A DNA stretch of 40,719 bases, from IMG/VR virus record IMGVR_UViG_3300038673_000482, positions 1 to 40,719 of that record; one strand, written 5' to 3'. Positions within the stretch are counted from its first letter, which is position 1; each line of letters opens with the position of its first letter. Of this stretch, positions 9,756-37,835 are shown piece by piece. The translations under genes were made by a program, and so were the position numbers. The notes beneath the pieces were generated by a model, which saw only the letters and a program-made list of their open reading frames with translations, was not told where the DNA came from and made no database searches. Source of the stretch: a virus. Taxonomy: Duplodnaviria > Caudoviricetes.

Positions 9756-9873
9756 GTCCAGTGAAAAAACGAACAATTTTTATTCACTCTTGTCATACAC
9801 CTCTGTTTACAAAAAATAGGGGTGTTAAATATTAATATCGACGACAAAATGATTGGATATATCGACTCTTCGC

Positions 9874-11460: not shown

Positions 11461-11696
11461 TGGGGAGATATGTCCCTGGGAGAAAAATAGATTAGTCCCT
11501 GGTGGACCCCTGGGAGGGCCGGCGGCCGTTCGGCGGCCGGGTCGGGGTGGAGACCCCGCAGTGTCCTTCACAGGGGCGGCCCTGGACCTTTCCCCCACTG
11601 AATACGCATCCGGCGATACACGGGGTAGTGGCAGACGATCTCCTCGCCATAGTTGGTAGTGGGTAGACAGGGGTTATATATGGGATTCAGGGGGGG

Positions 11697-22000: not shown

Positions 22001-23137
22001 TTACCTCTGCAAAATCTTCTCTATCCGGGCCATCGTCGAGAGGGTCCCGGTGCCGGGGGGTGTGTTCGTCTTGCCGTCCAGGGAGGGCTTTGCCCCCTTC
22101 GCGATCGTCGGGTCGACCACGATCGTCCGGACCTGGGGGGTCCGCTTCTTGAGCTCGTTGAGCTCGGCCTCGAGGGCCGTGATACGGTCCGCCTGAGCCT
22201 TCACGATCGAGGGGTCAACCTTCTGTTCATCCTGGGGGACGTCCTCGGCTTTCTTGACCTCTTTCTTGTTGAGGCCAGTGCATTTCTCGAGGTCGTCCTC
22301 CTTCGCGACGTCGTCGAGGCCGGTCCCCTCTGCCTTCTCGACCTCCTCCTGGGCGGTCGGCGGGGGGATCGGCGGGAGCTCGTCCTGACCTTCCTCTGTC
22401 ACCTCGTTATCTCCTCCCCCGACCCCGAGGTGATCGGAGATCGCCATCACGGCCGAGAGGATCTCTTCCATGATCTCCTCTGGGCTCCTGGGGGCGTCCC
22501 CAGGGCCTCCGTCGACGGGAGGAGCTGCTGAATCTACTCCTGGTTCGTCCATCTTCCTGATTCTCCTTGTTCCATCCACCGTGGGGTGGATGAGCGCTGA
22601 TCCGCCAGAGGTCATCGCCTTGACGATCTCGACGAATGTGGTGCGATTCTTTCCGGTCCCCCTGGGGCAGAGGGAGATACTCCAGAGATACATCGCCTTG
22701 GTGATACAGGGCGAGGTCCTCTTATCGGCCGGGATATTGCATTCCCGGCTCCCTGCCTTGCGGGTCCCGAAGATACTCCACTCGTCGATCTCGCCTTTCA
22801 CGATGCCGTGCCAGATGTCATCAGTGTCCGGGGTTGCCTTGATCTCTCCCTCCACCTCAAGACCTCGAGTCACCTTCCCGTCAGAGAGGGTCACTTCGCC
22901 GTATCGGGCCTTCGTGATCCATCCGATCGGCCTCTCACTGTGATAGTAGTGGATGATCGGCAGGGCCATGAAGTCCTCAAGGGCCTTCGTGATCGCTCCT
23001 TCGGCGATGATCTCTTTCTCTCGGTCCATGGAGGGGGTCGTCGCGACGCCCCAGATCTTACGAGACTTGCCGTCGGTCGAGTGGTTGAGTTTAAACGTGA
23101 AGAGAGGATCCTCCTCTCGAGAAGCTCCGATCGGCAT
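22001..23137 (-). CDS. HK97-type prohead protease fused to an acidic scaffold-like region (start revised to MPIG)
   Basis: IWGVATTPSMDREKEII, IHYYHSERPIG, GEIDEWSIFG, LWSISLC; coiled-coil C-terminus; TTTATAA promoter 32 nt upstream. Confidence 0.85.
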   Translation of the reverse strand: MPIGASREEDPLFTFKLNHSTDGKSRKIWGVATTPSMDREKEIIAEGAITKALEDFMALPIIHYYHSERPIGWITKARYGEVTLSDGKVTRGLEVEGEIKATPDTDDIWHGIVKGEIDEWSIFGTRKAGSRECNIPADKRTSPCITKAMYLWSISLCPRGTGKNRTTFVEIVKAMTSGGSALIHPTVDGTRRIRKMDEPGVDSAAPPVDGGPGDAPRSPEEIMEEILSAVMAISDHLGVGGGDNEVTEEGQDELPPIPPPTAQEEVEKAEGTGLDDVAKEDDLEKCTGLNKKEVKKAEDVPQDEQKVDPSIVKAQADRITALEAELNELKKRTPQVRTIVVDPTIAKGAKPSLDGKTNTPPGTGTLSTMARIEKILQR

Positions 23138-23347
23138 TGATACTCTGGTATCGGGCAGAGTGTTATAAACAGGAATTAAAAGCAGGGTTTTACCCCAGGG
23201 GGTCAAGGTGGCATCTTGACAGGGTTGTTATCCCCCTGGGGGAGGCTTTCCCATATGTCGAAAAGAGAGGAGGGGTCCCCCGACCACCCTCCTCATACCC
23301 GGGTTATCCGGGCCAGTTATATACTGGAATGAGCACACCTACAGAGC

Positions 23348-23635
23348 ATGGCAGAGTTAAGTGATATTGTGAAGCTCCTCGTGGCAGGGGGCCTCGCAGG
23401 GTTCGGGGTGGGGCTCCTCGCCTCGCCGGTGTTTATGATGATGCTTGCCCCTGGAGTTATCAATCCGATCGTCGACCTCATCGGGGCCGCGATCGTGGCG
23501 GCTCCTTGTGTGATCATCGCAGGGTGGATCTGGAAAAGAGTTGGGGACCGTGATGGCCTGAACGATTTTTATGGAGTCACGATCCTCGGGGTCGCCCTGG
23601 TTACCATCTTCGTGAAGGTCACGTTCTATATGTGA
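23348..23635 (+). CDS. Small membrane protein (about 3 TM), antisense to the head operon
   Basis: Very hydrophobic 95 aa; TTATATA at 23317, 31 nt before the ATG. Confidence 0.7.
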   Translation: MAELSDIVKLLVAGGLAGFGVGLLASPVFMMMLAPGVINPIVDLIGAAIVAAPCVIIAGWIWKRVGDRDGLNDFYGVTILGVALVTIFVKVTFYM

Positions 23636-25691
23636 CCTTCCGGACGTCCCCAGGGTAGACGATTGCCTTCTGCAGGGATGCGTCTCCCTCTACAAATTTG
23701 TCACGGTATACATCGAGCACATCTTGAAGGACTTTATTTATCTCTTTTTCGTCGAGCATGTCTGAAAATGTCGTGTATATCTCAGTCTTGATCTTAGCAA
23801 TCGGCCCCCATATCGACTCATCAGGGTGCATGTTCTTCAATGTCCAGAGGTCAGACGCGAGGTTCCAGGTATAGTTATTGTAGTGTATACCCTCCTCCTC
23901 GATTCTCTCTCGATAATGTGGGAACTCGACTTTTTGGGAGAGTTTTCCCCTTTCCTTAATGTTCTTCTTCTCACTTCTGCAGTCGATCTCGTGGTCCCAC
24001 CAGGGGACGCCCTCCAGGTCATCGGGATCGACGGGCTCGACAGTGATCACACGCCATTTAGTGTGGAAATTCCCTCCAGTGGGGAGGGGGACGTTGTATC
24101 TCGCATTTGGCGCGACATTCACATCCTCGATTTTCGTTACCTTGTATCTCATTCCGTGAGGCAGGATATATTCCCACTCCGATCCCCCGAGGTATATCCC
24201 ATGGAGTCCATTAGGGTTGACGATTGAGAGGACGACCGGGAGGCCCTCGGGGTTCCCGGGGGTCTCTGGTTTGACTTTTCCATGAGCGTAGTTCCCTCTT
24301 GCAGTGAATTCAAAACTCGTCCATGGGTCGAGACTCCAGGAGGTGAAGGAGGGGTCGATCAGTATATCCCCTGGGGCGAGTTTTGAGTCATCTTCGACCC
24401 CCAGGGATTTCAGTGAGGCAACGCCATGGAGGATAGGTCGGTCCTCTTCAATTGTTACTCTCTCCATCAGAGCGTCTATTGCCATGACATATTTCTGGGC
24501 TCGGGCCATCTCAAAACTTGAGATCTTCCGTTCCCCGTCCCAGTATCTTCCGTCTTGTCGAAGGGCGGCCTTCATGTAATTGAATCCACTTCCGGAGTAG
24601 TCGGAAATCGCAGCTTTCACATTTTTTGGGAGGCTGTCCAGGGTGTCGTATCTGGGATCGGCCGAGGGGTGTGCCTCTGACCATTTTCTAATCTCCTCGG
24701 CTGTTTCAACGAGATGTTTGTCCTCTCCGACATATCGGTAATGGGGGTGCGCCCAGGAGTGATCAGGGTCGCCGTCATCGTATTTCTTGATGAAGTCCTC
24801 CTCTTTTGAGATGAGCGACCCGCTCGACTGGTAATTAATGAGGGTTGCCACCTTCGCCCAGTCATATTTCCATTTTGGCGAGAACTCTGCTTTCGCATAG
24901 TCGTCCTTCTCCACAATGTCGGCAGTGGCATAATCGGCGATATTCCAGGGGGTAGTATAGGTAGATTGACCCTCTGGTGAGTTCTTTACCATCAGGTCAT
25001 ATAGTGCCCGCTGGAGTGCCTCCTTTCGCAGGATTGGATCGGGCGTTCGCTCGGATTGAGTGTCTCCGCTCAAGATGTTTGGCATGGGGGATTCGGGATC
25101 GATCTCTTTGTACTTCTGTATGAGATGTCTTTGCGCGAGGTCGAACCATTCAGTGATGAATACCCTCCATGCAGTAGAGGGGGTCATCCCGCCTCCTAGG
25201 GAGACGCCTTTGTCAATGATCACTTTGAGGACCCAGTCATACGGGAGTCCTACATTGGGGTCGAAAATAAAGTCCCTGAAATATGTGGACTCCCAGAGGT
25301 ATACTTTATCAAAATTGTCCTGCCCGTCATAGAGTCGGGGGTAGTCCATTCCCTTCTCCGCTAATCCTACCGAGTATATCAGGTTCTCGAGGTTCCAGTG
25401 GAATCGATCAAGGAATTGCGGGGGTGCCTGCTTGACGAAGGGGTAGAACTCCCAGTTTCTCTCCCGGGGGACGTCCCACCCCTCCACGATGAGGGGAGAT
25501 TTTTCCTCATCAGGGACAGCCCCTTGAGATGAAGGTGCTGTCTCCTCCTGGGGCTTTTCTGGTTTCTCGCTCGGGATGTAGTAGACTCCCCCGTGAGGTC
25601 CCTTGTAGAGTTTCGTCCCAGGGGCGACTTTCTGCCCGGGTTTCACGTAGACCTTCGTGACCGGGCCGGCTTTCTCGATCCAGAGGCTCAT
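23619..25691 (-). CDS. ADP-ribosyltransferase (VIP2/Alt-like) effector with an N-terminal motif shared with the portal
   Basis: AISDYSGSGFNYMKAALR, IDALM, PILHGV, GDILIDPSFTSWSLD, GIYLGGSEWEYILPHG.RYKV fit the R-S-E ART pattern, with His in place of Arg. Confidence 0.8.
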   Translation of the reverse strand: MSLWIEKAGPVTKVYVKPGQKVAPGTKLYKGPHGGVYYIPSEKPEKPQEETAPSSQGAVPDEEKSPLIVEGWDVPRERNWEFYPFVKQAPPQFLDRFHWNLENLIYSVGLAEKGMDYPRLYDGQDNFDKVYLWESTYFRDFIFDPNVGLPYDWVLKVIIDKGVSLGGGMTPSTAWRVFITEWFDLAQRHLIQKYKEIDPESPMPNILSGDTQSERTPDPILRKEALQRALYDLMVKNSPEGQSTYTTPWNIADYATADIVEKDDYAKAEFSPKWKYDWAKVATLINYQSSGSLISKEEDFIKKYDDGDPDHSWAHPHYRYVGEDKHLVETAEEIRKWSEAHPSADPRYDTLDSLPKNVKAAISDYSGSGFNYMKAALRQDGRYWDGERKISSFEMARAQKYVMAIDALMERVTIEEDRPILHGVASLKSLGVEDDSKLAPGDILIDPSFTSWSLDPWTSFEFTARGNYAHGKVKPETPGNPEGLPVVLSIVNPNGLHGIYLGGSEWEYILPHGMRYKVTKIEDVNVAPNARYNVPLPTGGNFHTKWRVITVEPVDPDDLEGVPWWDHEIDCRSEKKNIKERGKLSQKVEFPHYRERIEEEGIHYNNYTWNLASDLWTLKNMHPDESIWGPIAKIKTEIYTTFSDMLDEKEINKVLQDVLDVYRDKFVEGDASLQKAIVYPGDVRKVTYRT

Positions 25692-26014
25692 TATCTCCGA
25701 GCTGGGTCCGTGTTCATCGCGATCATTTTGAGGTAGGTCTTCATCTGCTCTGTATCATTCCTGATTTCTTTCAGGAGGTCCGCGATCAAGAACAGGGCCT
25801 CGAATGGGTTGACCTGGTCCCCCGGGATCTCGAAGTGACTCGCGAGATCCCTGCATCTCTCCTGGATGATGGCCGTCGCCTTCTCGAGACTGGCCGGGTC
25901 GACGGTGACCTGCAGGTTCAAGGGATCGGCCTTCACTTCAACCTTTACGGGGACCGTCGTCGCGGTCTTCTCCGTCTTCTTCACCTTCGATCTGTCATAG
26001 ACTCCTTTTGGCAT
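25691..26014 (-). CDS. Small hypothetical protein between MuF and the ART
   Basis: 107 aa; TAATG coupling to the ART; contains SLEKA. Confidence 0.65.
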   Translation of the reverse strand: MPKGVYDRSKVKKTEKTATTVPVKVEVKADPLNLQVTVDPASLEKATAIIQERCRDLASHFEIPGDQVNPFEALFLIADLLKEIRNDTEQMKTYLKMIAMNTDPARR

Positions 26015-26017
26015 GGT

Positions 26018-26884
26018 TCAGTTCATCTCCTGTTTTTTCGTCGTCTTCTTCTTCTGTTTCGTCGCCGGCTCTTCCGGCCCCTTGAACTTCGGGCCGATCG
26101 TGCATCTGCAATTGATCACCTGCGCGAGGTCCGGCTGGAATGAGACGTCCCCGGGATACATCATCTTGCACCCTGGGACGGTCTTCGACCCGGGCGTCGG
26201 CTTGAACGAGGGGACCTCGAAGGGTTCCTCGACCGGGACGATCTTGTGGTGCATCTCCTTGTGGCTGTCCCGGGTCCGCTCGGAGGGGACCGTCGCGATC
26301 CACATCTTGTAGGGGGCGTATTTCCGGATCCTCTCCCAGGCGGCACGGTTATAGGCCTGGTTGATGCTCGTCCGAGCGATCATCTCTGCCCTGGGAAGGC
26401 CGATTGAGTTGAACTGCTCGGTGATGTCCCTCGAGATCCGGGTGATCCCGAGTCCCTGCTTGTCCGCGTCGATGATGGTTCGCATGACCTTCCTTCCCAG
26501 GTCTGCATTGATCCCTTTCAGGTCCGCGAGGCTGAGCTTGGCGAGCTCGTCGATGGCCTCCATGTCGGGCCGGGTCCAGTCGACCCCGGCGACGAGCTTT
26601 GTCTCGTATATTGGGGCCTGGGCCTGGACCTGCCCGACTGTGTAGTCGACCCCGCGCTCGTATCCCAGCTTGACGAACATCTCGATCAGGGCCTTCCCCT
26701 TGACCTGGAGATGATAGTTCAGGGACCGCTCGATCGCCCTCTCAAGCTCCTCCAGGTCGAGGGGGCCGGGGGCGATCACGATCGGCCTGATGTTCATGAG
26801 GATACTCTCCCGGGACCGGCGTAATGTTCCGAGAAGCTGCTGCAGATACAGAGTCCGCAGGGGTCGGACTGGATCAATAGCCAT
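26018..26884 (-). CDS. MuF / SPP1 gp7-like minor head protein (no toxin extension)
   Basis: RAEMIARTS..QAYN, KMW, RTRDSH...H, MMYPGD, INCRCT. Confidence 0.92.
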   Translation of the reverse strand: MAIDPVRPLRTLYLQQLLGTLRRSRESILMNIRPIVIAPGPLDLEELERAIERSLNYHLQVKGKALIEMFVKLGYERGVDYTVGQVQAQAPIYETKLVAGVDWTRPDMEAIDELAKLSLADLKGINADLGRKVMRTIIDADKQGLGITRISRDITEQFNSIGLPRAEMIARTSINQAYNRAAWERIRKYAPYKMWIATVPSERTRDSHKEMHHKIVPVEEPFEVPSFKPTPGSKTVPGCKMMYPGDVSFQPDLAQVINCRCTIGPKFKGPEEPATKQKKKTTKKQEMN

Positions 26885-26907
26885 GTGAGTGAGTGGGGAA
26901 GGGTCTG

Positions 26908-26925
26908 TATTATACAGGAATCAGG
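26908..26925 (-). promoter_or_regulatory. Late-type promoter CCTGATTCCTGTATAATA
   Basis: TATA begins 30 nt upstream of the MuF ATG; identical copy at 39951-39968. Confidence 0.75.
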
Positions 26926-27571
26926 AATTTGAGGGGGGAAGGTCCCCGAGGACCGACCGTTCCCTGAACTCCTGCTCGTTCCCCCAGGTTGCATGAATCT
27001 GGTAGGCCCATCCGTCTCCCAGGAAGACGGGCCGGTTCGTATCGGTCGCGTAATAGGTCTCCCCTATCTTCACCCAGTAGAGACGGGGCGGGAGGACCTT
27101 GGTGACGACAAACATGGTCGGTGTCACCTGGAGGACGGCCTCGGGGACGATGTTCCCTCCTGGGGAGTGTCTCTCGCCGGCGTCGTTTGTCCATGTCGTG
27201 GGATCGAGGTGCGCGGGGGGGAAGAAGAGAGTCCCCCGGGCGGCCTCCTGGTGGGTGCGACACAGCATGAAGTTGAAGACTTCCCGGAAATCGGAGTCGA
27301 AGAAATAGACAAAGACTCCCAGGAGGAGGGGCTTGGTGAGGATGTCCTTCCGGTGGGTCCGGGAGTCGGCCCCCTGCCATTCCTTGACGATCTGATAGAG
27401 GACCTTTGCATTCCCGGTAAGGTGGGGGGCAAACCTCTCCTCGTCGACGTTCGCGAACGGGAGGTATTTGATCATCATCCGGGCGATGGCCTTGAACGTG
27501 ATATGGAATCGGAAAGTCTCCGGTGTGGCACTGCTCATCTGGTCGGGGTTGTTGATACTACTCATCTTCAT
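26921..27571 (-). CDS. Hypothetical protein (start revised to MKMSSINN)
   Basis: ~216 aa; AGGAG RBS. Confidence 0.6.
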   Translation of the reverse strand: MKMSSINNPDQMSSATPETFRFHITFKAIARMMIKYLPFANVDEERFAPHLTGNAKVLYQIVKEWQGADSRTHRKDILTKPLLLGVFVYFFDSDFREVFNFMLCRTHQEAARGTLFFPPAHLDPTTWTNDAGERHSPGGNIVPEAVLQVTPTMFVVTKVLPPRLYWVKIGETYYATDTNRPVFLGDGWAYQIHATWGNEQEFRERSVLGDLPPSNS

Positions 27572-27725
27572 TCTCTTGTCGCCTCCCGGTCCCCCTACAG
27601 GCAGGACATACACGGAGGAGAGAATGGATCGGGACCAGCTCAAGGAGATAGGTGTGATCCCAGTAGGCTCTCAGGCCTTTACAGACGGGGCAGGTGTAGT
27701 CCTCGAGCGGAGGTCTCGAGTGCAT
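27558..27725 (-). CDS. DnaJ-type Zn-finger microprotein (CPVCKG...CPACRGTG)
   Basis: ATG 29 nt after the late-promoter copy at 27748-27765. Confidence 0.6.
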   Translation of the reverse strand: MHSRPPLEDYTCPVCKGLRAYWDHTYLLELVPIHSLLRVCPACRGTGRRQENEDE

Positions 27726-27891
27726 GATACCTACTCGGTCCTTGGAGTAATATACAGGAATCAGGGAAAAAAGAGGGGGTTGGATGGAAGTTACATGGAA
27801 CTGACTGGAGTTTCCTGGTTGCGTGAGTGACTGCATCAAGGGTGGCGGCTTGACTTCACCACCCCGCTCATGCTGTGAGCGGGATGAGGTC

Positions 27892-28080
27892 TTATTTTTT
27901 GGGGTTGTTTTCCTTCCCCTCCTGGGGGGCAGGGGTATACTCCCAAGGGTCGTCCTCGGTGTCAAGCATCCGATGACCGTGTTTCCGGACGTATTCCTTC
28001 TTCTGTTCCAGGAGCTCGAGGTATTCCGCATGGCTCCTCGCGGTCGATGGATCGGGCATTTTTTCATTCATGCTTCTCAC
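27892..28080 (-). CDS. Small hypothetical protein
   Basis: Last ORF of the island before a T-rich terminator; start uncertain. Confidence 0.45.
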   Translation of the reverse strand: MRSMNEKMPDPSTARSHAEYLELLEQKKEYVRKHGHRMLDTEDDPWEYTPAPQEGKENNPKK

Positions 28081-28354
28081 GTCTTGAAAATTCCGGTCTC
28101 ATCGAACTTGACGGCCCCTGGGCTATTTTTTCATCAATCCACTCATGAATGACCTGCTTTAATTCCTCCCTTCTCATGTCGGGCCTTATTCGTTGAATGA
28201 GGACCTCTCCGAGCTCATCCAGGAAGGGGTATACGGCCTCCTCTCGTTCGAGTGGATCGGTCGGGATCGGGTCAATGCAGGTGTTCATGAGCTCAAGGAA
28301 ATGGTCCTCCTCTCCCGCCTCCCGGATTGCTCGGGAGACTGTGAGGGGGGTCAC
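28064..28354 (-). CDS. Hypothetical protein
   Basis: 96 aa; GTGA coupling. Confidence 0.55.
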   Translation of the reverse strand: MTPLTVSRAIREAGEEDHFLELMNTCIDPIPTDPLEREEAVYPFLDELGEVLIQRIRPDMRREELKQVIHEWIDEKIAQGPSSSMRPEFSRREKHE

Positions 28355-28494
28355 TCCTCTGCCTCCTGGGCGGCTTTCTTGGCTTTCTCTACTGGGATCT
28401 TCCGATAACAGTGGGGGCAGGTGAGATAGAACCTCGAGGACCCCTTATAGTCCCATTCGTGGCCGCAGTCAGGACGAGGGCATTTAAGTCTCAT
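28351..28494 (-). CDS. Archaeal CPxCG-type Zn-finger regulator
   Basis: Hand-translated MRLKCPRPDCGHEWDYKGSSRFYLTCPHCYRKIPVEKAKKAAQEAEE; GAGGT RBS; own TATA-like TTAAGTA 31 nt upstream. Confidence 0.75.
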   Translation of the reverse strand: MRLKCPRPDCGHEWDYKGSSRFYLTCPHCYRKIPVEKAKKAAQEAEE

Positions 28495-28507
28495 TACCTC
28501 TTCCATA

Positions 28508-28948
28508 CTACTCACCACTACTTAATGATGGTGGAGGGTCCCTGGGGGCCAGGGATTTCAGTGAGGCGTAGGGGTGGAGGATCTTGTGCCAGGCAGTCTG
28601 GTACCCGCATTTCGGACACTCAAACCAGACCCACTGGGGGACCGCGTATCCTTCCAGGGGGACGCCTCCGTCTCCATGATCGCAGGTCATGAACTCACAG
28701 TCAGCGAAGGGAGTCCCGCAGCTACAGGTCTTCCTCTTCGATGAGAAGAGGAGGATCTTCCGGAGCTTGATCCGGGTGTCCCGGGCCTTCTCCTGGTCCG
28801 TGATCGTGACCTTGTCGGGGGCCTGGTCGTCTCCCAGGCGGAGAGTCCGCTGGACTTTCGCCCAACACTCGGGACCGTATCCGTGCCGGATACTCTGTGG
28901 GTTCGAGAGGGGCCGATTACATTTCAGGCAGTAGAGGGAGGGAGGCAT
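28508..28948 (-). CDS. DUF6011-like Zn-finger protein with a second Zn domain
   Basis: CLKCNRPLSNPQSIRHGYGPECW; CSC...CPKC. Confidence 0.75.
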   Translation of the reverse strand: MPPSLYCLKCNRPLSNPQSIRHGYGPECWAKVQRTLRLGDDQAPDKVTITDQEKARDTRIKLRKILLFSSKRKTCSCGTPFADCEFMTCDHGDGGVPLEGYAVPQWVWFECPKCGYQTAWHKILHPYASLKSLAPRDPPPSLSSGE

Positions 28949-29130
28949 CAGGGTCCCCCCCTCTTATATCCTGGGAGGCAGGGGCATTTCCCGGGAGTGT
29001 TCAGAGGGCACTCCTCGCAGTCACATTCGTCTCCATTGAATTTGAACGTCTGGAGACCTGCTTTCTTCCGGGCCACATTACAGGCCTCTTCATTGGCGGC
29101 CTCTTCGGCATCAACGTCAGGGTATAACAC
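28948..29130 (-). CDS. Cys-rich microprotein
   Basis: CDCEECP...CPC. Confidence 0.5.
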   Translation of the reverse strand: MLYPDVDAEEAANEEACNVARKKAGLQTFKFNGDECDCEECPLNTPGKCPCLPGYKRGGP

Positions 29131-29272
29131 GATTTACCCCCTCCTTTTTCCGTCCCCGGAGTCCCCACCCCTTGTCATACCCACACTTCGGGCATTTGAA
29201 GTCATGGGACCCCGGTCCTGGGACATATCCGCATTGTTTACAGTAGGCCTCGAGGTATGGTCCAACGCCCAT
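29117..29272 (-). CDS. Zn-ribbon microprotein (CKQC...CPKCG)
   Basis: Hand-translated, 51 aa; TGATG coupling. Confidence 0.5.
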   Translation of the reverse strand: MGVGPYLEAYCKQCGYVPGPGSHDFKCPKCGYDKGWGLRGRKKEGVNRVIP

Positions 29273-29556
29273 CACGTCGCCCCCTGGGGAGTGGGGGAGA
29301 GGGTAATGATTCCCTCTTTGTCCTGGGAGAGACCGAGGGTCATCACCATCGCCCCCTCACCCAGGAACTCGGCCGCTATGACGTCGTCATAGGTATTCAC
29401 GATCTCGCGCAGTGAGGCAGAGACGACGATCTTCATGACCGCCTGTTTCGCCTTCGGGGGGACGATGGTGATCTTCCATGCCCCGTACTCGGCATTATTG
29501 CCGATCGCCCCGTGCTTCTGCAGGGCTCCTGGTTGTGCGTATGTCATGAGTCTCAC
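29272..29556 (-). CDS. Hypothetical protein
   Basis: ~91-94 aa; GGTGA RBS before MTYAQ. Confidence 0.55.
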   Translation of the reverse strand: MRLMTYAQPGALQKHGAIGNNAEYGAWKITIVPPKAKQAVMKIVVSASLREIVNTYDDVIAAEFLGEGAMVMTLGLSQDKEGIITLSPTPQGAT

Positions 29557-29757
29557 CTATATGATCCGGATGACCTGTCCGGAGTAAGCGGCCTTCTCGA
29601 TCCGGCGGATCTTCCGTTCGACAATTGCGAGGTCCTCAAGGCATTCCTTTTGGGCCTTGGGACTCAAGCCCATTCGAAGTTTGCGGATGTATGCGATCTT
29701 AAACTCGATGAGGGTCGCGAGGGATTCATCCGGGTTGATAGGGTCAGGGTATGCCAT
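29557..29757 (-). CDS. Small helical hypothetical protein
   Basis: 66 aa; directly follows the DUF932 gene. Confidence 0.55.
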   Translation of the reverse strand: MAYPDPINPDESLATLIEFKIAYIRKLRMGLSPKAQKECLEDLAIVERKIRRIEKAAYSGQVIRII

Positions 29758-30669
29758 TTAGGCCACCACCGGGACGGGGATCGGGATGACCTCCCCGAAC
29801 AGGATCTTCGACTCGGCATTGGAGATCAGGGCCTCGCGCTTGATGTGAGAGACCTGCTCATGGGAGGCATATGCCGTGATGGCATTGTAGAGCTCCCATT
29901 TATTCGTCTTCTCCGGGTTGTCGATCTGCAGGGCGGCAACGTCCGCGATCTTCTTGCTCTCGGTGATCGGCGCGAGAGTGTTCGCGATCTCCGCATAGTC
30001 CTTGAACGAGACTTTCGCCTCGATCGCGGCCTCGATCTTGACCTCGAGGAGATGCGAGCGCTGGAGGATCCCGTCGATGAAGGCCTCGACCTTCTCGGGG
30101 ATCGCGAGGACCTGCTTCTCGGTGTGCCAGGCCGTGATTACCAGCTCACCGAAGGTCTTGGTCGCGAGCATCCCGTTCGCACAGGCAAGACGCCATCCGA
30201 AGGCACTGCCTTTGAACGACTTCTTGTCGTTATACTGGTTCTTGAACCGGACGCCCATCTGGATCCCGTCCTGGTGATCGTTGACCATCAGGTCGGGGAA
30301 GAGGATGAACGCCTCGACGACGTCGTGATGGTTGTCGATGTTGATCAGGGTATTGAGGCCCAGGTGGTCGGCAGCCGTCAGGACCGGGTCGAGTGCGTCC
30401 TCGTGGTTGAGGGGCATGTAGTTCTTTGCGGCCCCGAAGTGGATCTGTCCTGTGTTGAGGTTTTTCAGACCGTATACCTTCGGGGTCTGCTTGAGGGACC
30501 CATCGACGAAGAGGTGTCCGTCGTCGTTATACCCCAGGATCTTGTTGTCGAGCTTGGGGTCGAACGGGACTTTTTCATAGAGCGGCACGAGGGCGGCCTT
30601 GTCAAGGCCGGCGAGGACTCCCTTCGCATCGGAAGGGGTCATGTCCTTGAAAGAGTTGATGCTGAACAT
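29758..30669 (-). CDS. DUF932-like protein
   Basis: NY.PLNH...L, N.Y....SF.....GWRLACANGM, T.WH, N.WELYNAIT.Y.SH; GGAGG RBS. Confidence 0.8.
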   Translation of the reverse strand: MFSINSFKDMTPSDAKGVLAGLDKAALVPLYEKVPFDPKLDNKILGYNDDGHLFVDGSLKQTPKVYGLKNLNTGQIHFGAAKNYMPLNHEDALDPVLTAADHLGLNTLINIDNHHDVVEAFILFPDLMVNDHQDGIQMGVRFKNQYNDKKSFKGSAFGWRLACANGMLATKTFGELVITAWHTEKQVLAIPEKVEAFIDGILQRSHLLEVKIEAAIEAKVSFKDYAEIANTLAPITESKKIADVAALQIDNPEKTNKWELYNAITAYASHEQVSHIKREALISNAESKILFGEVIPIPVPVVA

Positions 30670-30744
30670 TTTTGTTCCTCCAAAACAGTTCCGAAAAAAT
30701 GCCCTTTTCTGGGTTTGACCCGACGCCCTGGGGCGGAAAAAGGG

Positions 30745-31299
30745 TTATGCTGGTATTGGTATGAGGGGGTTGTGCAGGGGGGAGACGAGGCGGTTGATCC
30801 TCCAGGAGGACCCTGCCTCGATGATGTGAGGGGGGTCGAGGGTGTGCTCGTATAGGTCGTCAATCTCCTGGGAGAGGTGCCAGGCCTCCCGCTTCGCACG
30901 GGCGAGGACCTTTGCAGGGTGGGGACCCTCGATGATCGCGACGAGCTCGAGCTCCCATCCGGGCTCGTCCCAGTAGATGTCAACGAAGGAAGTCTTCCCC
31001 TCCTTCCTGGGGATGAGTTTCAGGGTCCCGACGAAGGTCTTGACGTCCTCGAGAACCTCCTTCTCGATGTAGGGGCCAGTGTAATAGCCATACATATTGA
31101 AGGCCTTGGGGTAGTGGTTCAGGTCCGGAACCTTCTTGATCACGGACTTGGTCTCATAGCGATACACGGGAAGGGACAGGTCCTTCCCGACCGGGGGGAC
31201 CGGAAGTTCAATCTTTGGAGGGCTCCGGTCCGCCCAGTGTGCCGGGGACCAGCGTCCCCGGTTCGGGAAATCATCGTGAGAGGGGCTTGCGTAGGTCAT
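30745..31299 (-). CDS. Hypothetical protein
   Basis: 184 aa in the early island. Confidence 0.6.
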   Translation of the reverse strand: MTYASPSHDDFPNRGRWSPAHWADRSPPKIELPVPPVGKDLSLPVYRYETKSVIKKVPDLNHYPKAFNMYGYYTGPYIEKEVLEDVKTFVGTLKLIPRKEGKTSFVDIYWDEPGWELELVAIIEGPHPAKVLARAKREAWHLSQEIDDLYEHTLDPPHIIEAGSSWRINRLVSPLHNPLIPIPA

Positions 31300-31498
31300 A
31301 TCCAGTCATTTCCTTAACGTGTTGGTCGAACGATCTCCAGTGCCGGCCCCGGCATTTCTGCCGGGAGATGTCAAGCTCGACCTGGAAGATCCTGCAGAAC
31401 TCATGAGGCCCCCAGGAGAGGGGGTCTCGGGGTGATTGCTCATAGAACAGGCAGTCATCACAGCTTTTTCGCATCGGCCGGGACGCCATAGACGGCAC
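31271..31498 (-). CDS. Cys-rich microprotein
   Basis: CDDC.FY...C...C. Confidence 0.5.
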   Translation of the reverse strand: MPSMASRPMRKSCDDCLFYEQSPRDPLSWGPHEFCRIFQVELDISRQKCRGRHWRSFDQHVKEMTGYDLRKPLSR

Positions 31499-31606
31499 CT
31501 CCTGGGGTGACGAGTCGGCCTCCGATGAAGGCTCCCTCGACCCAGAATCCTCCGATAGTCCCTCCGATTTTGTCGTGGTCCTTGAAGGATTTCTTTTTCT
31601 TCATGG

Positions 31607-31903
31607 TCAGTTCACCTCCTCGAATCCGACGTCATCGACCTGGTAGAGGGCCTCGGTCCCGGTGTCGAGAATCACGTCCCCGACGGACAGGGACCGGGAG
31701 ACTCCTGCGAGGGCAGGGCCGATGTTGGTCAGTTCATACAGGTGGTCAAGGTTATCGGCGACGACGAGACCCGCGTGATACCACCCTGGGGAGGGTGTCC
31801 GGGCATATTTTGATGACCGGGGATAAATCACGTCATCCCTCTTAAGGTCCGGATTGAACCGGAAAGAGGGGTCAAGGGGGTAATAGAGACGATACAGAGG
31901 CAT
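31607..31903 (-). CDS. YodL-like domain protein
   Basis: LDHLYELTN.......RSLSVGDVI.......YQVDDVGFEEV. Confidence 0.8.
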   Translation of the reverse strand: MPLYRLYYPLDPSFRFNPDLKRDDVIYPRSSKYARTPSPGWYHAGLVVADNLDHLYELTNIGPALAGVSRSLSVGDVILDTGTEALYQVDDVGFEEVN

Positions 31904-31905
31904 AG

Positions 31906-32040
31906 TTACCAGGCCCCCAGGGGGTAACTCGGGGAGATACCCGGGGGGAGGGGGATGTCAAGCAGCTCAGCGTAGGCGTCTTCGGCCGCAGAGGCATGAA
32001 CGAAGCGCCAGAAGTAGTCATGGGTTTTGGTGTCAAGCAT
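31906..32040 (-). CDS. Small hypothetical protein, first gene after the structured leader
   Basis: Hand-translated, 44 aa; AGGTGA RBS. Confidence 0.5.
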   Translation of the reverse strand: MLDTKTHDYFWRFVHASAAEDAYAELLDIPLPPGISPSYPLGAW

Positions 32041-32319
32041 TTCAGATCACCTGTCTCCCCTGGGGGGGACGCACCCCGCCCAGGTGGAGGGTAATCTTCT
32101 CCAGTCAGTTCCCTCTTCGGTCAGGTCCCCGAAATGACCTTCATCCCCAGACCCCGGGCATCGGAAGCGACGATCTCCTCTCCGGTTCACCCCCCGAATC
32201 CCTTGGTCGAGCGCCCTGTTCTCCGAGTCTTCCCCGGCAGGGTCACCCTGCGAAGTCCTCACTGGGGGGTGACCATCGCGAGGAGCCCCGACCGGGCTCC
32301 CCCGGGCCATCCACAATAC

Positions 32320-32343
32320 TACTTACTACTCACTACTATATAA
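32320..32343 (-). promoter_or_regulatory. Promoter TTATATA followed by GTAGTGAGTAGTAAGTA (20-bp direct repeat with 32715-32734)
   Basis: tacttactactcactactat is exact at 32320-32339 and 32715-32734; a degenerate copy lies at 28506-28525. Confidence 0.7.
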
Positions 32344-32441
32344 TAGTTATGCCCCCTGGGGGGAGGAATGGGGGTCAGAATGGAGTCCGATTGGATGGCG
32401 GAAGTAATATTTATATACTGAAAAAAGAGAGGTGCCGCACC

Positions 32442-32699
32442 TTACTGGGGGGGTGCCGCACCCTGGGAGACGGGCGACTTGCTCTTGATATAGTGGTCGA
32501 TCTTGTTCATCACCTCGGCGGCCTGGGACTCGTCGATTTTTGTATAGTGCATGTAGGCACTCGACATTCCCATCCAGAGCTCGAATCCGTGGTCGTCATC
32601 CGCCCATTTTCCATTTCCATGATAGGATTGGAAGGCATCAGCATCCCAGTCGCACCGGACCAGGCCGAGGCCGCTATCGTGCATCATGTATTTCCACAT
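32442..32699 (-). CDS. Putative immunity protein for the portal-borne RelA/SpoT-like domain
   Basis: Immediately downstream of the toxin-like domain; own promoter and AGGTGA RBS; small, aromatic-rich, with C-terminal YTKIDESQAAEVM. Confidence 0.55.
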   Translation of the reverse strand: MWKYMMHDSGLGLVRCDWDADAFQSYHGNGKWADDDHGFELWMGMSSAYMHYTKIDESQAAEVMNKIDHYIKSKSPVSQGAAPPQ

Positions 32700-32730
32700 G
32701 GTTCTCACCTGCCTTACTTACTACTCACTA

Positions 32731-35700
32731 CTATTTAGTCTTATCCCAGTGCCAGTTCTCCATCCTGGGGGGATACTTACAAGACTGGTAGATCTCCTTG
32801 ATCTTTGCTTTGGCGGCATTTTTCTGTTCTCTCGTCGCAGTCCGGCTCCTCGCGACCTCATACCATTTATGGGTCCTCTTTTGCTTTATCTCGTAAGATT
32901 CTGGGGTGTGGAATTGGAGCTCGACCTGTTTCCCCTCGATGAGGAGCTTGACGTTGACGCCTTTATAGCATCCCTGCCCCCACCTCCAGAAGTTTGAGAC
33001 CTTCTCCACCTTGACCCCGCTTCCCTCGAGGTCCGCGAGGGTCTTCATCATCGTCTCCTGGTAGGTATAGGGGGAGATGATAGAGGTGAACCTGGTGACA
33101 TCATCCACATACTGGACAAGCTGGTCCTCGGTCAGGTGTGGGTGTCTGGCATGTTCGATCTCGAGGGCCTCGTGGATGGAGTTCCAGGTCTTGAGACGGA
33201 AGTCGAGACCTGCGAATGCCCCCCCGTTCTTGACGACTGCTTTTTTGAGGGCCTTATAGTTCTTATCGACCCGTTCCCGGCCATCCTTATAGATGGCGTC
33301 TGCATGTTGCTTGATCTTCTCCGGGTCGATGGTGTATTCCGGTTTCTTCTCCTCCTCTTCCTTCTTGACGTCCTCGGTGCGTTCCTTATCGAAGTTGATG
33401 TTCAGGGAGAAGTTGACGGTCCCGTTCCTCCCCTCGAGGTAGACGGCTGTAAAGTCCTCATCTGCATTAGGCTGGACCCAGGAATATCCTTCTCCCGTAT
33501 AGGCCGCGCCGATGTTGTCCCCCCGGGTGACGATCATCTCGTTCTGCCCGTGATCGCAGAAGAGGACTGTCGACTGGTTCATCTTCTTCCCGAGCTCGAC
33601 GATGTCGTCTCGATCGGCGTCGTGGGTCATCACGAGGAACGAATCCTCGAACTCTCCATACTTCCCGAGGACCTGGGTGAAGACATACCCCTTCTCGGTC
33701 AGGTCTTTCCTGAGCTCATCATGCCGCTTTTTATATCTCTCCTGGTCGAAGTCCAGGGGGTTGAGTTTCTTCTCGTCATTGTTCGGTCCTGCGGAGATCA
33801 GGGCAAACTTCGTGTGGGCGAGGATGATCGCGAGCTCGTCCTCATCAGCGATCTCGGTCTCGATTCCCTTCCCAGGTTCTCTCTTCGCATACTTCCGGAG
33901 GATCTGGTCGCGCTCCTCGGCAGTATACTTCTTCCCCGGTTTCCCTCCTCCCCCCTCCTGGGGCGAGGGTTTCCCTTCCTGACCTTCTTGATCCTGTGAT
34001 CCTGGTCCTCCCAGGGCCGGTTTGTTGGGGTCGACTCCCTCCCTCTCCGGGAGGGGTGTGTCCCCTTTCTGTTTAGGGGGTGATTGGAGGGTCGTCGCGT
34101 GTTTCGACCTCTCAAGATAGAACCTGCCTCCTCTCTCCCCCTCGTAGACCTTGACTCCCTGGGGGGGTTCTTCTCCGGGCTTGAGGTAGATGGGTTCGGC
34201 CTTCTCGATCATCTCGTCGGGCTCAGTCTCATCGTCCCCTTTTCTCACGGCACCCCCGACATGAACTGGGACCTTCTTCTGACCTTTCTTCCGGAGGTCC
34301 CATTTCGTCTCGTGTTTCGACGCCCCCTGGGCTCCCTTGTGCGATCGGTGCGTGACGTGATCCTCTCTCTCTGGGGCATAGTCCCGCTTATAGTCTGCCG
34401 CGCCCTGTGCGCCTCCAGTTGGCGCATGGGGTCTCCTGGGGAGTGTGGTCGCCTGGTGTTCCTTTGAGAGGTCCTCATACTTCATTGGTTCGGGCCGACC
34501 GACCTTCGGGACCTCGCTTTTGAGATAGTAGACTCCGCCCCTGGGACCCCTGTAGAGCTTAGCGCCTTTCGGGACCTTGCCCGGCTGCGCGTACTCGATC
34601 CGGTCCTCCGGCATGGAGACCTTCACTCTCTTTACCCTGCCGAAGTCCTTATGGTCTTCATACTCGCCGTCGTCTGCCTTCTTGACTTTGTCGCGGTCCT
34701 CGTCACTTCCCTCGTGTTCCTGGGAGGTTGCGGACCCGAAGTTGTCACGGTTATAGACCTGGGGGCCTCCCAGGTCCTCGTCTCCCTCCGCATAGAACTG
34801 GGCGGCCTCGTCTGGGGAGAGCTGCTGTCCTCCCTGGGGGTTCGTGTTCAGTCCGCCTCCCGGGCCTGGGGGACCCATGGGTCCGCCCCCGCCTTCCATC
34901 CCCTGGTTCCATGCTGCTTCCTGGGCCTCCTCCATCGCACTGACAGCCCTCTCGATCTTCTCGTCGTCGAGTCCTGCGATCCGGAGCGCGGCTTCGAGGG
35001 GGACCCCGAGCTGCATGTAAGTCGTGGCGACCTGTGCCCGGGCCTGGTCGATCTGGGCCATCTTGAGCTCGTCGTCGAGGTCGACGACGTCCTTGAACCT
35101 GAACCTCCATCCCGGCTCCCACCCTTCAATGTCGGGGAGGAGGTTCTCATTGATCATCTCCTCGAATTTCCGGAGAAGGGGGCTGAGCATCCGGCTCTTG
35201 GTAATGTTTCTCGCGACGTATGCAGTGGCGCGGTTCACGTCGTCACCGACAAATTCGGAGGAGGAGAATCCGAACATCGCCCAGACGATCTTCGCGACCC
35301 ACATCTGGCCCTCGAGCCATTGCATGTCGACCATGGTCGGCGTGAGGGGTTCGATGTCCTCCTCCCCGATCAGGTTGACGACCCCGTTGAAATTTTCCGG
35401 CCCCAGATTTGCAGAGTTCAGCTCGGCGTTCGCTTCGATGAGCTGGGAGACACTGGTATACTGGGGGTGCTTGTATTTCATCCCGGGCATGACGCCGTTC
35501 GCGAAGGTCATCCCTGCGGCCTTAGTGGAATCGATCAGATACTCGAGATACCACTTGAGCTGCTGCATGAAGTCAGTCCCGTAGCAGGAGTCCGCCCTGG
35601 GGTAACAACAGAAATAAACGACTTCCTTCGGGTCGAACGGGATGAAAATCCCTGCCCGGGCGTGTTGCCAGTATCGCTTGACGTATCCCAGGGAGTAGGG

Positions 35701-36330
35701 TCCCTCATAGACGAGACCCATCTCCCCCGTGATCCCTCGCCAGTCTCGATCGATCTCGACCCAGAACTCGGGTCCGGAGTAGGCCTTGAACTCAAGGAGG
35801 ACCTGCCGGCCGGAGGTGTCGGGGAGGCTCAGAGTCTTGACCCAGGCCCCCGCATCGTATCTGATCACGTCCCGGGCCGTCATCTTGAGGAGGGTCGGGA
35901 AGGTGTCCTGGGGGTTCGGTCGTTTCAGGAACTCGATCGCCCTCTCGACCCGCGTCTCCTTATGGTCAATCACCTCCCATTCGACGATCCCGAGATAGTC
36001 CATGACGCCTTTCTCGCAGATGGCGAATATCGGGTTCCTCGCAAGCCTGTCGTTGTCTGCCTGGAAGAATCCCTCTCGATAGATCCCGTATATGCCCCAA
36101 TAAGCATTTACCGAGGCGACGGCCTTCCGCATAGCGGCCCCGGTGACGGGGTGGTCTGTGTGCTTTTCCCCCCCGTTGCCGAAATACTTCTCGAATCCTG
36201 TAGTGGGTCTCGATTTCCCCTCTGCCCCTCGGAGGGTGTTCATTCTCTGTTTATACCCCGGATCATGTTCCGGGAGGGAGGCTTTTGTCTCCCCCAGGAG
36301 GTGGTCCCGGAGGAATCCGACGAGGGTCAT
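32731..36330 (-). CDS. Portal protein fused to a linker with two GPxGG motifs, a DUF3293-like domain and a RelA/SpoT-like nucleotidyltransferase
   Basis: Portal (~aa 1-470): L.RPNP, YG, F.NG.MPG, DMQWLE, IVWAMFG. DUF3293-like: FALISA...ELRKDL..KGY....GKYGE.EDSF.V...ELG...NQ..VL. RelA-like: GLDFRLKT..S, DDVTRFT, NFW...YKGVN, VELQFHTPESY..K...H.WYE..R. Confidence 0.88.
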   Translation of the reverse strand: MTLVGFLRDHLLGETKASLPEHDPGYKQRMNTLRGAEGKSRPTTGFEKYFGNGGEKHTDHPVTGAAMRKAVASVNAYWGIYGIYREGFFQADNDRLARNPIFAICEKGVMDYLGIVEWEVIDHKETRVERAIEFLKRPNPQDTFPTLLKMTARDVIRYDAGAWVKTLSLPDTSGRQVLLEFKAYSGPEFWVEIDRDWRGITGEMGLVYEGPYSLGYVKRYWQHARAGIFIPFDPKEVVYFCCYPRADSCYGTDFMQQLKWYLEYLIDSTKAAGMTFANGVMPGMKYKHPQYTSVSQLIEANAELNSANLGPENFNGVVNLIGEEDIEPLTPTMVDMQWLEGQMWVAKIVWAMFGFSSSEFVGDDVNRATAYVARNITKSRMLSPLLRKFEEMINENLLPDIEGWEPGWRFRFKDVVDLDDELKMAQIDQARAQVATTYMQLGVPLEAALRIAGLDDEKIERAVSAMEEAQEAAWNQGMEGGGGPMGPPGPGGGLNTNPQGGQQLSPDEAAQFYAEGDEDLGGPQVYNRDNFGSATSQEHEGSDEDRDKVKKADDGEYEDHKDFGRVKRVKVSMPEDRIEYAQPGKVPKGAKLYRGPRGGVYYLKSEVPKVGRPEPMKYEDLSKEHQATTLPRRPHAPTGGAQGAADYKRDYAPEREDHVTHRSHKGAQGASKHETKWDLRKKGQKKVPVHVGGAVRKGDDETEPDEMIEKAEPIYLKPGEEPPQGVKVYEGERGGRFYLERSKHATTLQSPPKQKGDTPLPEREGVDPNKPALGGPGSQDQEGQEGKPSPQEGGGGKPGKKYTAEERDQILRKYAKREPGKGIETEIADEDELAIILAHTKFALISAGPNNDEKKLNPLDFDQERYKKRHDELRKDLTEKGYVFTQVLGKYGEFEDSFLVMTHDADRDDIVELGKKMNQSTVLFCDHGQNEMIVTRGDNIGAAYTGEGYSWVQPNADEDFTAVYLEGRNGTVNFSLNINFDKERTEDVKKEEEEKKPEYTIDPEKIKQHADAIYKDGRERVDKNYKALKKAVVKNGGAFAGLDFRLKTWNSIHEALEIEHARHPHLTEDQLVQYVDDVTRFTSIISPYTYQETMMKTLADLEGSGVKVEKVSNFWRWGQGCYKGVNVKLLIEGKQVELQFHTPESYEIKQKRTHKWYEVARSRTATREQKNAAKAKIKEIYQSCKYPPRMENWHWDKTK

Positions 36331-37835
36331 TTCCAGGACCCCCGAAGAGGCTCGGTCTCCTGCCTCGTATATTTCTTCACTGCAGGTAACTGGGTGATCA
36401 TGACCCCTCCCAGGGGGACTTCGCCGGCGAACATGGCGAAGTCAAAAGCATCGAATTGGTCATCGTGTTCTCCCTCCGGCATCAAGCATAGTTCCTCGAC
36501 GAACAGGTTCAACCCTCGCTTGACCCAGACATGGCCGTTCTGGACGACTCCGGATCGGTTATAGGCGCGGGATACCTTGTCTCTGGTTGTCTTTATCTCC
36601 TTGATTCTTATGAACGGGAATGTATGTCGGACCCTCTGGCAGAAATCCTCCTGGAATGCGACGGCCTCGATCCCGCAGACGTAGGGTTTCCACTTCTGCC
36701 AGGTGGCCGCGATCACCTTGGTCCTCTGGTCATAGGTATACCTGCCCCGGGTGACGTCCAGGATGTAGAAGTCGGGGTTCCTGTCCTTTGAGATCCCGAT
36801 CGTGCATATCGCAAAATAGTCGGCCGTGTCTTTCTCCGAGACGGATGGGTCGACCCCGACGTATATCTTGAGGTCCCGGAGCTTGATCATCTGGCCGTCT
36901 TCTCTCTCGAGGACTGTCTCCCCTCCGACCGTCGTGAACTCGAAGTATTTGAACCAGTCGAATTGGAAGATGTCCCCTTTTTTCATCAGCTCGACGTCGT
37001 TCTGATACTGCAGGTTGAAGACGACGGCCCCGACGTTCTGCCGGATGGTCTGGAGTCCTGTCGTGATCTGCTTGCCTTCAATCCGGTCTTCGAGGGGCAT
37101 AAAATCCTCCCAGATTGAAGTCTCGGTCCCCTGCTCGTCTGTATTGATCGCCATCTGGATCTGCAGGTCGAAGTCAAGCTCCTCGATCAGCATCTTGTAG
37201 AGGTCGAGGTAGTGGTATCGGGTCCCGAGGACGTGGATCTCTCCCCCTGGGATGAGGGTCGGGAGGAGTGTGAGCTTGAACCAGTCCGCCATCCTCTCCC
37301 GTTCCCCCTCGGTCCTCGCATTCGCGAAGTTGACGAGGTCGTCGGCGAGGATGATGTCATAGTGCCCGGAGGTGACGGCCCCGGAGTTCGCGCCGTGAGC
37401 GGTCAGGGTCGCCTCGGTCAGGATCCTGGTCCGGCCGGCGAAGATGGCCTCGTGATCACTCCATTTGTTTCCCCGGAGGTCCCCGTAGATCTCCTGAATG
37501 AGCGGGTGGTACTGGGCCGCGTTCTTGATCGTGTTGAGGAATCGGGTTGCGTGTTGGTCTGTGTCCGAGACGATCAGGATCCTGATGTCAGGGTCATTGA
37601 CGGCCTTCCATGCCCCATACCCGATCGTCCCTACCCTGGTCTTCCCGCTCCCCCTGGGTGCGAGGTCAAGGGTCTGCTGGTGGTCGAGATAGTGGTCCAG
37701 GATCTTCTTGTGGTGTTCCCAGATGGTATATCCGAAGACCCGGTTCGTGAAGTAATCGACCGAAGACTGGAGGAGATCTTTCTGGAGTGCCGGCTCGACC
37801 TCATTGAAGAGGTCGAGGGCCTCGGGCAAGGGCAT
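36327..37835 (-). CDS. terL: Terminase large subunit
   Basis: Walker A APRGSGKT, Walker B DIILADD, GTRYH, nuclease VGVDPS and HDDQFDA. Confidence 0.95.
   Translation of the reverse strand: MPLPEALDLFNEVEPALQKDLLQSSVDYFTNRVFGYTIWEHHKKILDHYLDHQQTLDLAPRGSGKTRVGTIGYGAWKAVNDPDIRILIVSDTDQHATRFLNTIKNAAQYHPLIQEIYGDLRGNKWSDHEAIFAGRTRILTEATLTAHGANSGAVTSGHYDIILADDLVNFANARTEGERERMADWFKLTLLPTLIPGGEIHVLGTRYHYLDLYKMLIEELDFDLQIQMAINTDEQGTETSIWEDFMPLEDRIEGKQITTGLQTIRQNVGAVVFNLQYQNDVELMKKGDIFQFDWFKYFEFTTVGGETVLEREDGQMIKLRDLKIYVGVDPSVSEKDTADYFAICTIGISKDRNPDFYILDVTRGRYTYDQRTKVIAATWQKWKPYVCGIEAVAFQEDFCQRVRHTFPFIRIKEIKTTRDKVSRAYNRSGVVQNGHVWVKRGLNLFVEELCLMPEGEHDDQFDAFDFAMFAGEVPLGGVMITQLPAVKKYTRQETEPLRGSWK

Follow-up and report, generated by a model that had tools for sequence, protein, structure and literature searches.

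A 26-residue tag behind predicted prohead protease sites on the enzymes of a probable methanogen virus: a candidate handle for ejection

Introduction

This analysis concerns a virus record of 40,719 nucleotides (IMGVR_UViG_3300038673_000482, Duplodnaviria; Caudoviricetes, positions 1 to 40,719, hereafter the window) and a 26-residue mini-domain, here called the tag, that occurs three times in it on two gene products, a portal fusion and an ADP-ribosyltransferase (ART)-like protein. The closest described systems come from phages T4 and P1, from effectors attached to portal and MuF proteins, and from PBCV-1. As set out in the extracts of the cited papers on which this account draws, unrelated internal proteins of T4 (IPI-III and Alt), an ADP-ribosyltransferase among them, share a short N-terminal element, the capsid targeting sequence (CTS), together with a prohead protease site, and these carriers remain in the head until they are ejected together with the DNA (PMC9026906, PMC7411985). 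The CTS is of ~10 residues, stands before the cut made by the protease gp21, which cuts after glutamate in a short motif (PMC9026906), and is removed, whereas the tag is a predicted folded domain that stands after its predicted cut; the propeptides of SPN3US are a similar case (PMC9026906, PMC7411985). In a further difference from the CTS, the tag is found within polyproteins too and is not tied to one family of protease or capsid, and by analogy the leader in front of the site would be the better counterpart of the CTS. In P1 the Dar proteins DarA and Hdf are likewise internal anti-restriction proteins that are processed by the prohead protease, touch the DNA in the head and leave with it; each is a large protein dedicated to this role and attached to the capsid wall, and for neither does the extract describe a portable mini-domain (PMC12810830).

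Effectors with ART, RelA/SpoT, zincin, zeta-toxin and Nudix domains have been found fused to, or encoded beside, the portal, MuF and capsid protease, and for these and for phage polyvalent proteins packaging and injection have been proposed and the cargo varies between relatives (PMC5512222, PMC5576092, PMC9503650). The present locus is similar in that its conflict enzymes are joined to a head protein or have their genes within the packaging module, and in that the C-terminal cargo varies, as seen in a replaced portal tail and a swapped ART cassette described below. According to the same extracts such proteins are few in archaea; they mention no N-terminal mini-domain in common, which this family has, and propose self-processing by cargo peptidases where here a predicted prohead protease site stands before each module (PMC5512222, PMC5576092, PMC9503650). 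The MuF of the window stands alone with no fused toxin domain, unlike the MuF polymorphic toxins. The latter reportedly have an immunity gene directly downstream.

Finally, the PBCV basic adaptor (PF08789) shares with the tag a GxxVxxGPRGGxYY core and its use as a small adaptor fused to unrelated enzymes, and its carriers in PBCV-1 are virion proteins associated with DNA (PMC3281028). The tag differs from it in being tied to a protease site, in being less basic and in having its third strand before the hairpin.

The tag and its three copies in the window

The tag has the consensus YLxPGExxPxGxxVxxGPRGGxYY and is predicted to form three beta-strands (AlphaFold2, pLDDT 90.5). Scans with DNA patterns that left the region upstream of the tag unconstrained gave 194 distinct copies in 201 loci, from which 10 copies of a bacterial variant were set aside; after removal of near-duplicates 129 of the other 184 were kept. 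A core profile of 68 sequences matches 735 protein clusters (50% identity clusters, E<=0.001).

The copies of the window score 30.2 (copy 1), 24.6 (copy 2) and 45.4 bits (copy 3) with a profile that was built without the copies of the window or its near-twin. The next-best six-frame match within the window reaches 6.4 bits and the top match of each of 20 residue-shuffled windows 3.9-10.8 bits, which rules out a chance repeat, and as the three copies are 46-56% identical a simple recent duplication of the tag is ruled out too. Copy 1 (25578..25652, residues 14-38 of the ART gene product) is directly behind the predicted prohead protease site IEKA (25668..25679), and copy 3 (34117..34191, portal residues 714-738) is likewise directly behind a predicted IEKA site (34198..34209); copy 2 (34525..34596, portal residues 579-602) follows the candidate site VKKA (34675..34686, portal residues 549-552) at a distance of 27 residues and has no recognisable enzyme behind it. 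These features and those of the two carriers are all on the minus strand. KA dipeptides are too common to be counted within the window (9 seen in the portal, 7.2 expected), so the weight of the cut site rests on the relatives.

The ART gene (23619..25691, 690 aa) encodes a 7-residue leader ending in IEK, the tag, a domain without assignment and an ADP-ribosyltransferase-like domain (24111..24662, residues 344-527) with weak matches throughout, among them PF03496, under its cut-off at E=3e-4, and phrog_3895. The first motif of this domain has His-Gly in place of the Arg-Gly of the solved ART Vis, as it does in the relative P0021. The portal fusion (32731..36330, 1199 aa) reads portal, linker, tag, linker, tag, S-adenosylmethionine (SAM) lyase and alarmone-synthetase-like domain. 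Its SAM lyase domain (33523..33744) matches PF23780 at 28 bits, which is the curated cut-off, and relatives score 36-42 bits; the last domain (32779..33258) resembles small alarmone synthetases of the RelA/SpoT type by a sequence match to SaSAS (PDB 8vx3, E=1.1e-7, query residues 26-184) and by phrog_7625 and phrog_2859. Copy 3 heads the SAM lyase and the alarmone-synthetase-like domain and copy 1 the ART-like protein, and both the synthetase and the SAM lyase recur behind tags in other proteins, stand-alone ones included. The RNA run X18 gave scraps of coverage only, which have no bearing on expression.

The first-pass annotation of this DNA had placed three tag copies at these positions, two of them close behind IEKA, and both statements are borne out, the copies by position and profile score. 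It had described the tag as linking two unrelated effectors; unrelated they are, and there are three enzyme types here, the portal tail holding two of them. Its Pro/Glu/Lys-rich linkers exist as an enrichment across the family, although a mild one (P 9.2% against a background of 5.6%), and its modular arrangement of cut site, tag, linker and interchangeable effector is upheld by the varied cargo and by the exchange of the ART cassette at the tag, both set out below.

The cut site in front of the tag

A strict [ILVMF]xK[AGS] site stands at most 9 residues before 62 of the 129 non-redundant tags, compared with 0 of 128 downstream control windows and 3.1% of random windows, and among new representatives such a site precedes 103 of 209 tags against 1 of 212 controls. 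Lysine is found at position -3 in 53% of the 129 tags.

The type of site differs between kinds of virus. In T4-like loci [IL]xE[ASD] precedes the tag in 11 of 11 cases and the K-type in 0 of 11, and at loci beside S78 proteases hydrophobic-x-K is found in 54 of 72 and an E-type in 1 of 72, though these counts lose some of their force as evidence for processing in that the 14-residue window was chosen after the data had been inspected and the loci are related to each other, so that the contingency counts are not independent. The consensus of gp21 sites is [IL]xE. A search of 49 whole records found a T4-type S77 protease in 3, with E sites in 3/3, and an S78 protease in 11, each with at least one broad K site. 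In a third group, represented by locus L192, D/N-L-A/S precedes the tags and D/N-L-S/A occurs likewise in the putative protease/scaffold of that locus, and in viruses of the K-type the same K motif stands at the start of the conserved capsid region. Several loci and proteins (L003, L014, L015; P0014, P0024, P0028) have KRSGGRGGR/K before the tag in place of hydrophobic-x-K.

Carriers of the CTS are substrates of the prohead protease; for the tag carriers this is predicted, the type of site following protease and virus type. Because the motif varies with the head protease across lineages, the best reading at the level of sequence is that cleavage takes place within the prohead and that the tag is on the side that is kept; that head-processed cargo does keep its tag we think likely.

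Conservation, tag-only genes and exchange of cargo

In the portal orthologue P0009 the two tags are 96% and 92% identical to those of the window, while the flanking linkers are 48-65%, the synthetase 70%, the SAM lyase 79% and the portal 90% identical; copy 2 is 96% conserved despite its distance of 27 residues from the nearest site. Furthermore there are genes of leader, site and tag without cargo, which encode 45, 46 and 49 aa, and near-identical relatives of the virus encode only a 49-aa leader and tag protein at the position of the ART gene. That gene clusters with three such 49-aa tag-only alleles, present on 7, 7 and 2 contigs, the ART form being present on 2. Tags out-conserve the cargo, the linkers and the portal though portal-fused cargo needs no address, genes of leader, site and tag exist without cargo, and one tag serves unrelated portals, capsids and proteases; all three findings point to a role for the tag once loading is over. 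In many stand-alone carriers a separate leader stands ahead of the site, and it is this leader, rather than the tag, that is the likelier loading address.

The ART gene lies in a cassette (23333..25573, minus strand) that is exchanged between relatives, which depart at the end of the tag and rejoin at 23333. A near-identical virus matches the window at 99% as far as the tag and again from 23333, with the crossover inside the tag codons and the last tag residues retained with synonymous changes. Contigs of runs X2 and X3 depart at 25564 and 25573 respectively and rejoin at 23333, and run X17 has a diverged ART allele throughout. In locus L001 (6107-8016) the place of the cassette is taken by an ORF that to the eye resembles a transposase, by a lipoprotein-like gene that resembles one of L008, and by remnants of genes.

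Locus L008 has an orthologous portal (9677-12889) that is 81% identical in its portal part and has a wholly different tail, which consists of IQKA, the header WVTTDEGNHIF and a domain, followed by IQKA, the header FNPDEPREDDGKWT and a second domain. The two domains we take by eye to be 'ART-like' and 'JAB-like'. No Pfam or NCBIfam model matches the L008 headers or their cargo, and loose patterns for the headers found no further site-linked copy among the collected loci. As this tail is built alike with different headers, twice over, the slot behind the site accepts other short headers.

Cargo and genomic setting across the family

A Pfam scan of 81 of 132 new representatives assigned a family to 34 and none to 47. 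Among the families are topoisomerase IB (7), exoenzyme-type ART (5), DRAT-type ART (3), SAM lyase (3), PI3/4-like kinase (3) and GNAT (2), along with portal (4), S78 protease (2) and MuF (1), and a second scan (38/43 proteins) adds polyA-polymerase/HD and zincin domains. Topoisomerase IB, the commonest named cargo (7/81: P0055, P0061, P0069, P0072, P0084, P0090, P0092), is an unexpected candidate for a virion-delivered enzyme. Three acidic polyproteins (P0046, P0047, P0081) have 5-6 tags, most of them behind a K site, with acidic spacers and no Pfam family. Stand-alone proteins of tag and alarmone-synthetase-like domain with a DLA/DLS-type site (L143:8893-9810, L177:8896-9810) are encoded next to DNA polymerase and ribonucleotide reductase genes.

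The tag is also found in cultured haloviruses. In HVTV-1 the 'zeta toxin' gp115 has AIAK in front of its tag, which is at residue 21, gp116 has two tags but lacks cargo, and both genes sit between a head-assembly gene and the prohead protease; HCTV-1 gp109 and HCTV-5 gp114 have the tag as well. The halovirus 'zeta toxin' genes are described as having no known role (PMC4284463).

When context was counted in 57 contig groups of at least 8 kb, a head gene was present within the locus in 35, and 9 were T4-like with tail or replication neighbours. These 9 rule out the confinement of tags to head modules. In 20 cases the ORF with the tag is itself a fusion to portal, protease or MuF. Head machinery of the SU10-type, of the T4-type and of other kinds is accompanied by the same tag, and because it serves portals, capsids and proteases of unrelated families this points to a partner shared across lineages and not to a lineage-specific protein.

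Relationship to the PBCV basic adaptor

The search for a named family gave little. Neither Pfam nor NCBIfam has a model for the tag, copy 1 giving weak matches to biotin-lipoyl and PASTA that were rejected as far under the Pfam cut-off, and the sole match in PHROGs is the N-terminus of the unannotated phrog_24083. PDB sequences gave no match (best E=1.2), a wide structural search had a best Z of 2.5, which is uninformative at 30 residues, and Foldseek on viral models found nothing at E<=0.001. The top Foldseek rows (an uncultured archaeal virus and HVTV-1) and an ESM Atlas match of 0.80 were treated as leads only, and HVTV-1 was then confirmed by sequence. With tblastn copy 1 found no match among cultured phages; other copies reached the haloviruses.

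Against PF08789, which has a cut-off of 20.4 bits, three copies of the window and three of its relatives gave no match at E<=10. The GxxVYxGPRGGxYY hairpin core is nonetheless shared, with an hhalign probability of 97.2% over 23 columns (E=3.8e-11) to Bacteroidales repeats of the PF08789 type, although this set had been chosen by the tag pattern, a bias that raises the 97% figure and lessens its value as support. The bacterial variant of the tag, in which 2 of 6 proteins tested pass the PF08789 cut-off, is on its sequence the PBCV basic adaptor. In the adaptor a third strand follows the hairpin (an NxNGNKxY turn and a strand); 184 of 194 tag copies are without it and have an xYL strand before the hairpin. 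In tandem adaptor repeats the strand behind one hairpin precedes the next, and this strand order suggests that the tag is a circular permutation of the PF08789 adaptor.

A link to DNA is suggested by the chloroviral carriers. The adaptor-bearing kinases A278L and A282L of PBCV-1 are packaged at ~400-530 copies and were recovered with virion DNA (PMC3281028), and an HNH nuclease is the fusion partner of one PF08789 protein. A set of Bacteroidales/Cytophagales-type proteins (L111, L115, L116, L118, L051, L071) has a signal-peptide-like start, a long Lys/Thr/Ala-rich linker and 1-2 PBCV basic adaptor repeats at the C-terminus. Prediction of complexes of the tag with portal, capsid protein and MuF scored 0.00 and was used neither for nor against binding.

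What the tag may do

We favour, at a probability of about one in two, the reading that the tag is a DNA-binding handle for the co-ejection of packed enzymes, the binding being predicted. Tag-bearing modules are either separate proteins or extensions of portal, MuF or protease, and most of them lie in head modules. They would enter the prohead through the head-protein fusion or a short leader before the site, and the co-variation of site and protease suggests that the prohead protease then cuts after hydrophobic-x-K, or after [IL]xE in T4-like viruses, so that tag-first modules are freed. Each freed module would be held on the DNA by its tag, and SAM lyase, ART and alarmone synthetase would enter the host with the genome to act on early defence and metabolism. 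At the DNA level, the crossovers that exchange the cargo behind the tag fall in its coding sequence. Several observations speak against a DNA-binding handle exposed in the head. The DNA-binding of A278L and A282L is not pinned to the adaptor itself in the extract available (PMC3281028); the tag has a median net charge of +2 with 15/129 negative, and the halovirus tags are acidic except for the R/K before YV and the R of GxRGG; the ligand of the secreted-looking Bacteroidales relatives may not be DNA, given their signal-peptide-like starts as judged by eye; 52/129 tags have none of three strict site patterns; and in 13/57 contig groups the profiles used recognised neither a head nor a T4-like gene.

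Were the tag a loading address that recruits cargo as the prohead assembles, by attaching to scaffold, portal, MuF or the inner capsid wall, the head-module context in 35/57 contig groups would be expected, a stand-alone ART with only 7 residues before its site and little else to address it would be explained, and the 5-6-tag polyproteins with their acidic spacers do resemble core components; in P1, moreover, the packaging of other Dar proteins depends on DarA and Hdf, which attach to the inner capsid wall (PMC12810830). T4 Alt, however, is loaded by a propeptide of just 7 residues (PMC9026906), the separate leader of many stand-alone carriers occupies the position of the address in T4 (PMC7411985), and the tag is strongly conserved on cargo that is already portal-fused, there being 20 portal, protease or MuF fusions, and does not change between viruses whose capsids and portals belong to unrelated families. 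We consider this reading unlikely, and the same evidence goes against the earlier proposal in the first-pass annotation of an address that binds MuF or portal for packaging: the tag is on the retained side of the predicted site, is 92-96% identical on portal-fused cargo, occurs with portals, capsids and proteases of unrelated families, and is encoded away from the head module in T4-like viruses. What survives of that proposal is its option of DNA-binding and ejection. Its expectation that profile hits would lie in head modules with varied enzymes agrees with the variety of the cargo and with 35/57 groups, and the 9 T4-like groups go against it.

A signal read by protein and not by DNA, with the portal/tail channel or a host factor recognising the cut tag and selecting the internal proteins to be ejected, would suit the position of the tag at the predicted new N-terminus and the unrelated short headers in the same slot of the L008 portal tail, as alternative signals might be, but the tag is common to contractile-tailed T4-like viruses and to viruses with other head/tail machinery and hosts, and tag-only genes would export nothing, which leaves this improbable. 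That the tag is instead an independent small internal protein, either an effector or one that condenses DNA, to which recombination has merely appended enzymes, is in keeping with the number of contigs with tag-only alleles (7, 7 and 2 against 2 for the ART form) and with HVTV-1 gp116; as 83% of the 129 tags have >100 residues behind them and each enzyme of multi-enzyme proteins often has a tag of its own, it seems very improbable. Nor do we give much credence to a role confined to processing, in which the tag, as a folded unit, displays the site for the prohead protease or shields the new N-terminus against further trimming without any part in delivery, and which we rate as highly improbable: the compact predicted fold and the fixed spacing with lysine at -3 would fit, yet capsid-protein and scaffold sites of the same type are without a tag, the tag occurs behind three different site types, and copy 2 is conserved far from its nearest site.

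In its widest form the DNA-binding reading would make the tag a portable 'ejection handle' of archaeal head-tail viruses and T4-like viruses, permuted in chloroviruses, which the protease of each lineage exposes, which holds whatever enzyme is appended on the packaged genome, and whose gene is a recombination socket for the swapping of cargo; this we put forward tentatively, as a possibility that falls short of even odds. We found no description of this mini-domain in the literature as searched, a comparison that did not extend to the supplementary alignments of Iyer 2017, whereas effectors fused to portal and MuF and protease-processed, ejected internal proteins are already described. On the earlier suggestion of an undescribed system without a named family, the mini-domain has no Pfam or NCBIfam model of its own, but its core is shared with PF08789 and the theme of fused effectors is a described one.

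The remainder of the genome and the likely host

The record has a 43-base direct terminal repeat (1-43 and 40677-40719), and a DUF2341/glycine-rich tail-type gene spans its ends (3-2279 and 40262-40717). The terminase, portal, MuF, S78-type prohead protease/scaffold and SU10-type capsid protein are all on the minus strand. The terminase large subunit (36327..37835) was identified by domain search and the portal domain (35044..35967, residues 122-429 of the fusion) by PF04860 at 62.6 bits and phrog_2662; the MuF minor head protein (26018..26884, 288 aa, PF04233) is without a tag. The protease/scaffold (22001..23206) has 9 KA dipeptides against 2.2 expected, and in the major capsid protein (20627..21994) IRKA (21635-21646) precedes the conserved mature region, as it does in relatives. 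Between portal and MuF lie ~6 kb of non-structural genes (26921-32700; DUF932, DUF6011 and others), and as the gene set of this interval differs in L008 and partly in L001 it is an insertion hot spot within the head module.

A tyrosine integrase with a C-terminal zinc ribbon (9874-11598) and a DNA methyltransferase (4698-5342) are also present; the virus is probably temperate and would encode a methyltransferase as well as a SAM lyase. The host is probably a methanogen, since two members of the cluster of P0009 are labelled Methanoregulaceae (two others Patescibacteria), the top NCBIfam match of the integrase is archaeal XerA, albeit under cut-off, and the metagenome runs that best match the virus are labelled bioreactor, wastewater and activated-sludge.

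Implications

This probable methanogen virus, of a group where such proteins have been reported to be scarce, has effector fusions of the virion type, one of them a SAM lyase joined to a portal. The tag offers a hook for the discovery of effectors, as the 47/81 scanned representatives without a Pfam family are candidate day-zero anti-defence proteins, and its presence in HVTV-1 gp115/gp116, HCTV-1 gp109 and HCTV-5 gp114 opens the system to testing in culture. The T4 CTS explains loading in part, and the tag makes it testable how cut cargo leaves with the DNA. If the tag is indeed an ejection handle, internal capsid proteins would for the first time have a defined sequence signal for their exit with the DNA, as opposed to their entry, and hundreds of unassigned domains would be marked as virion-delivered effectors.

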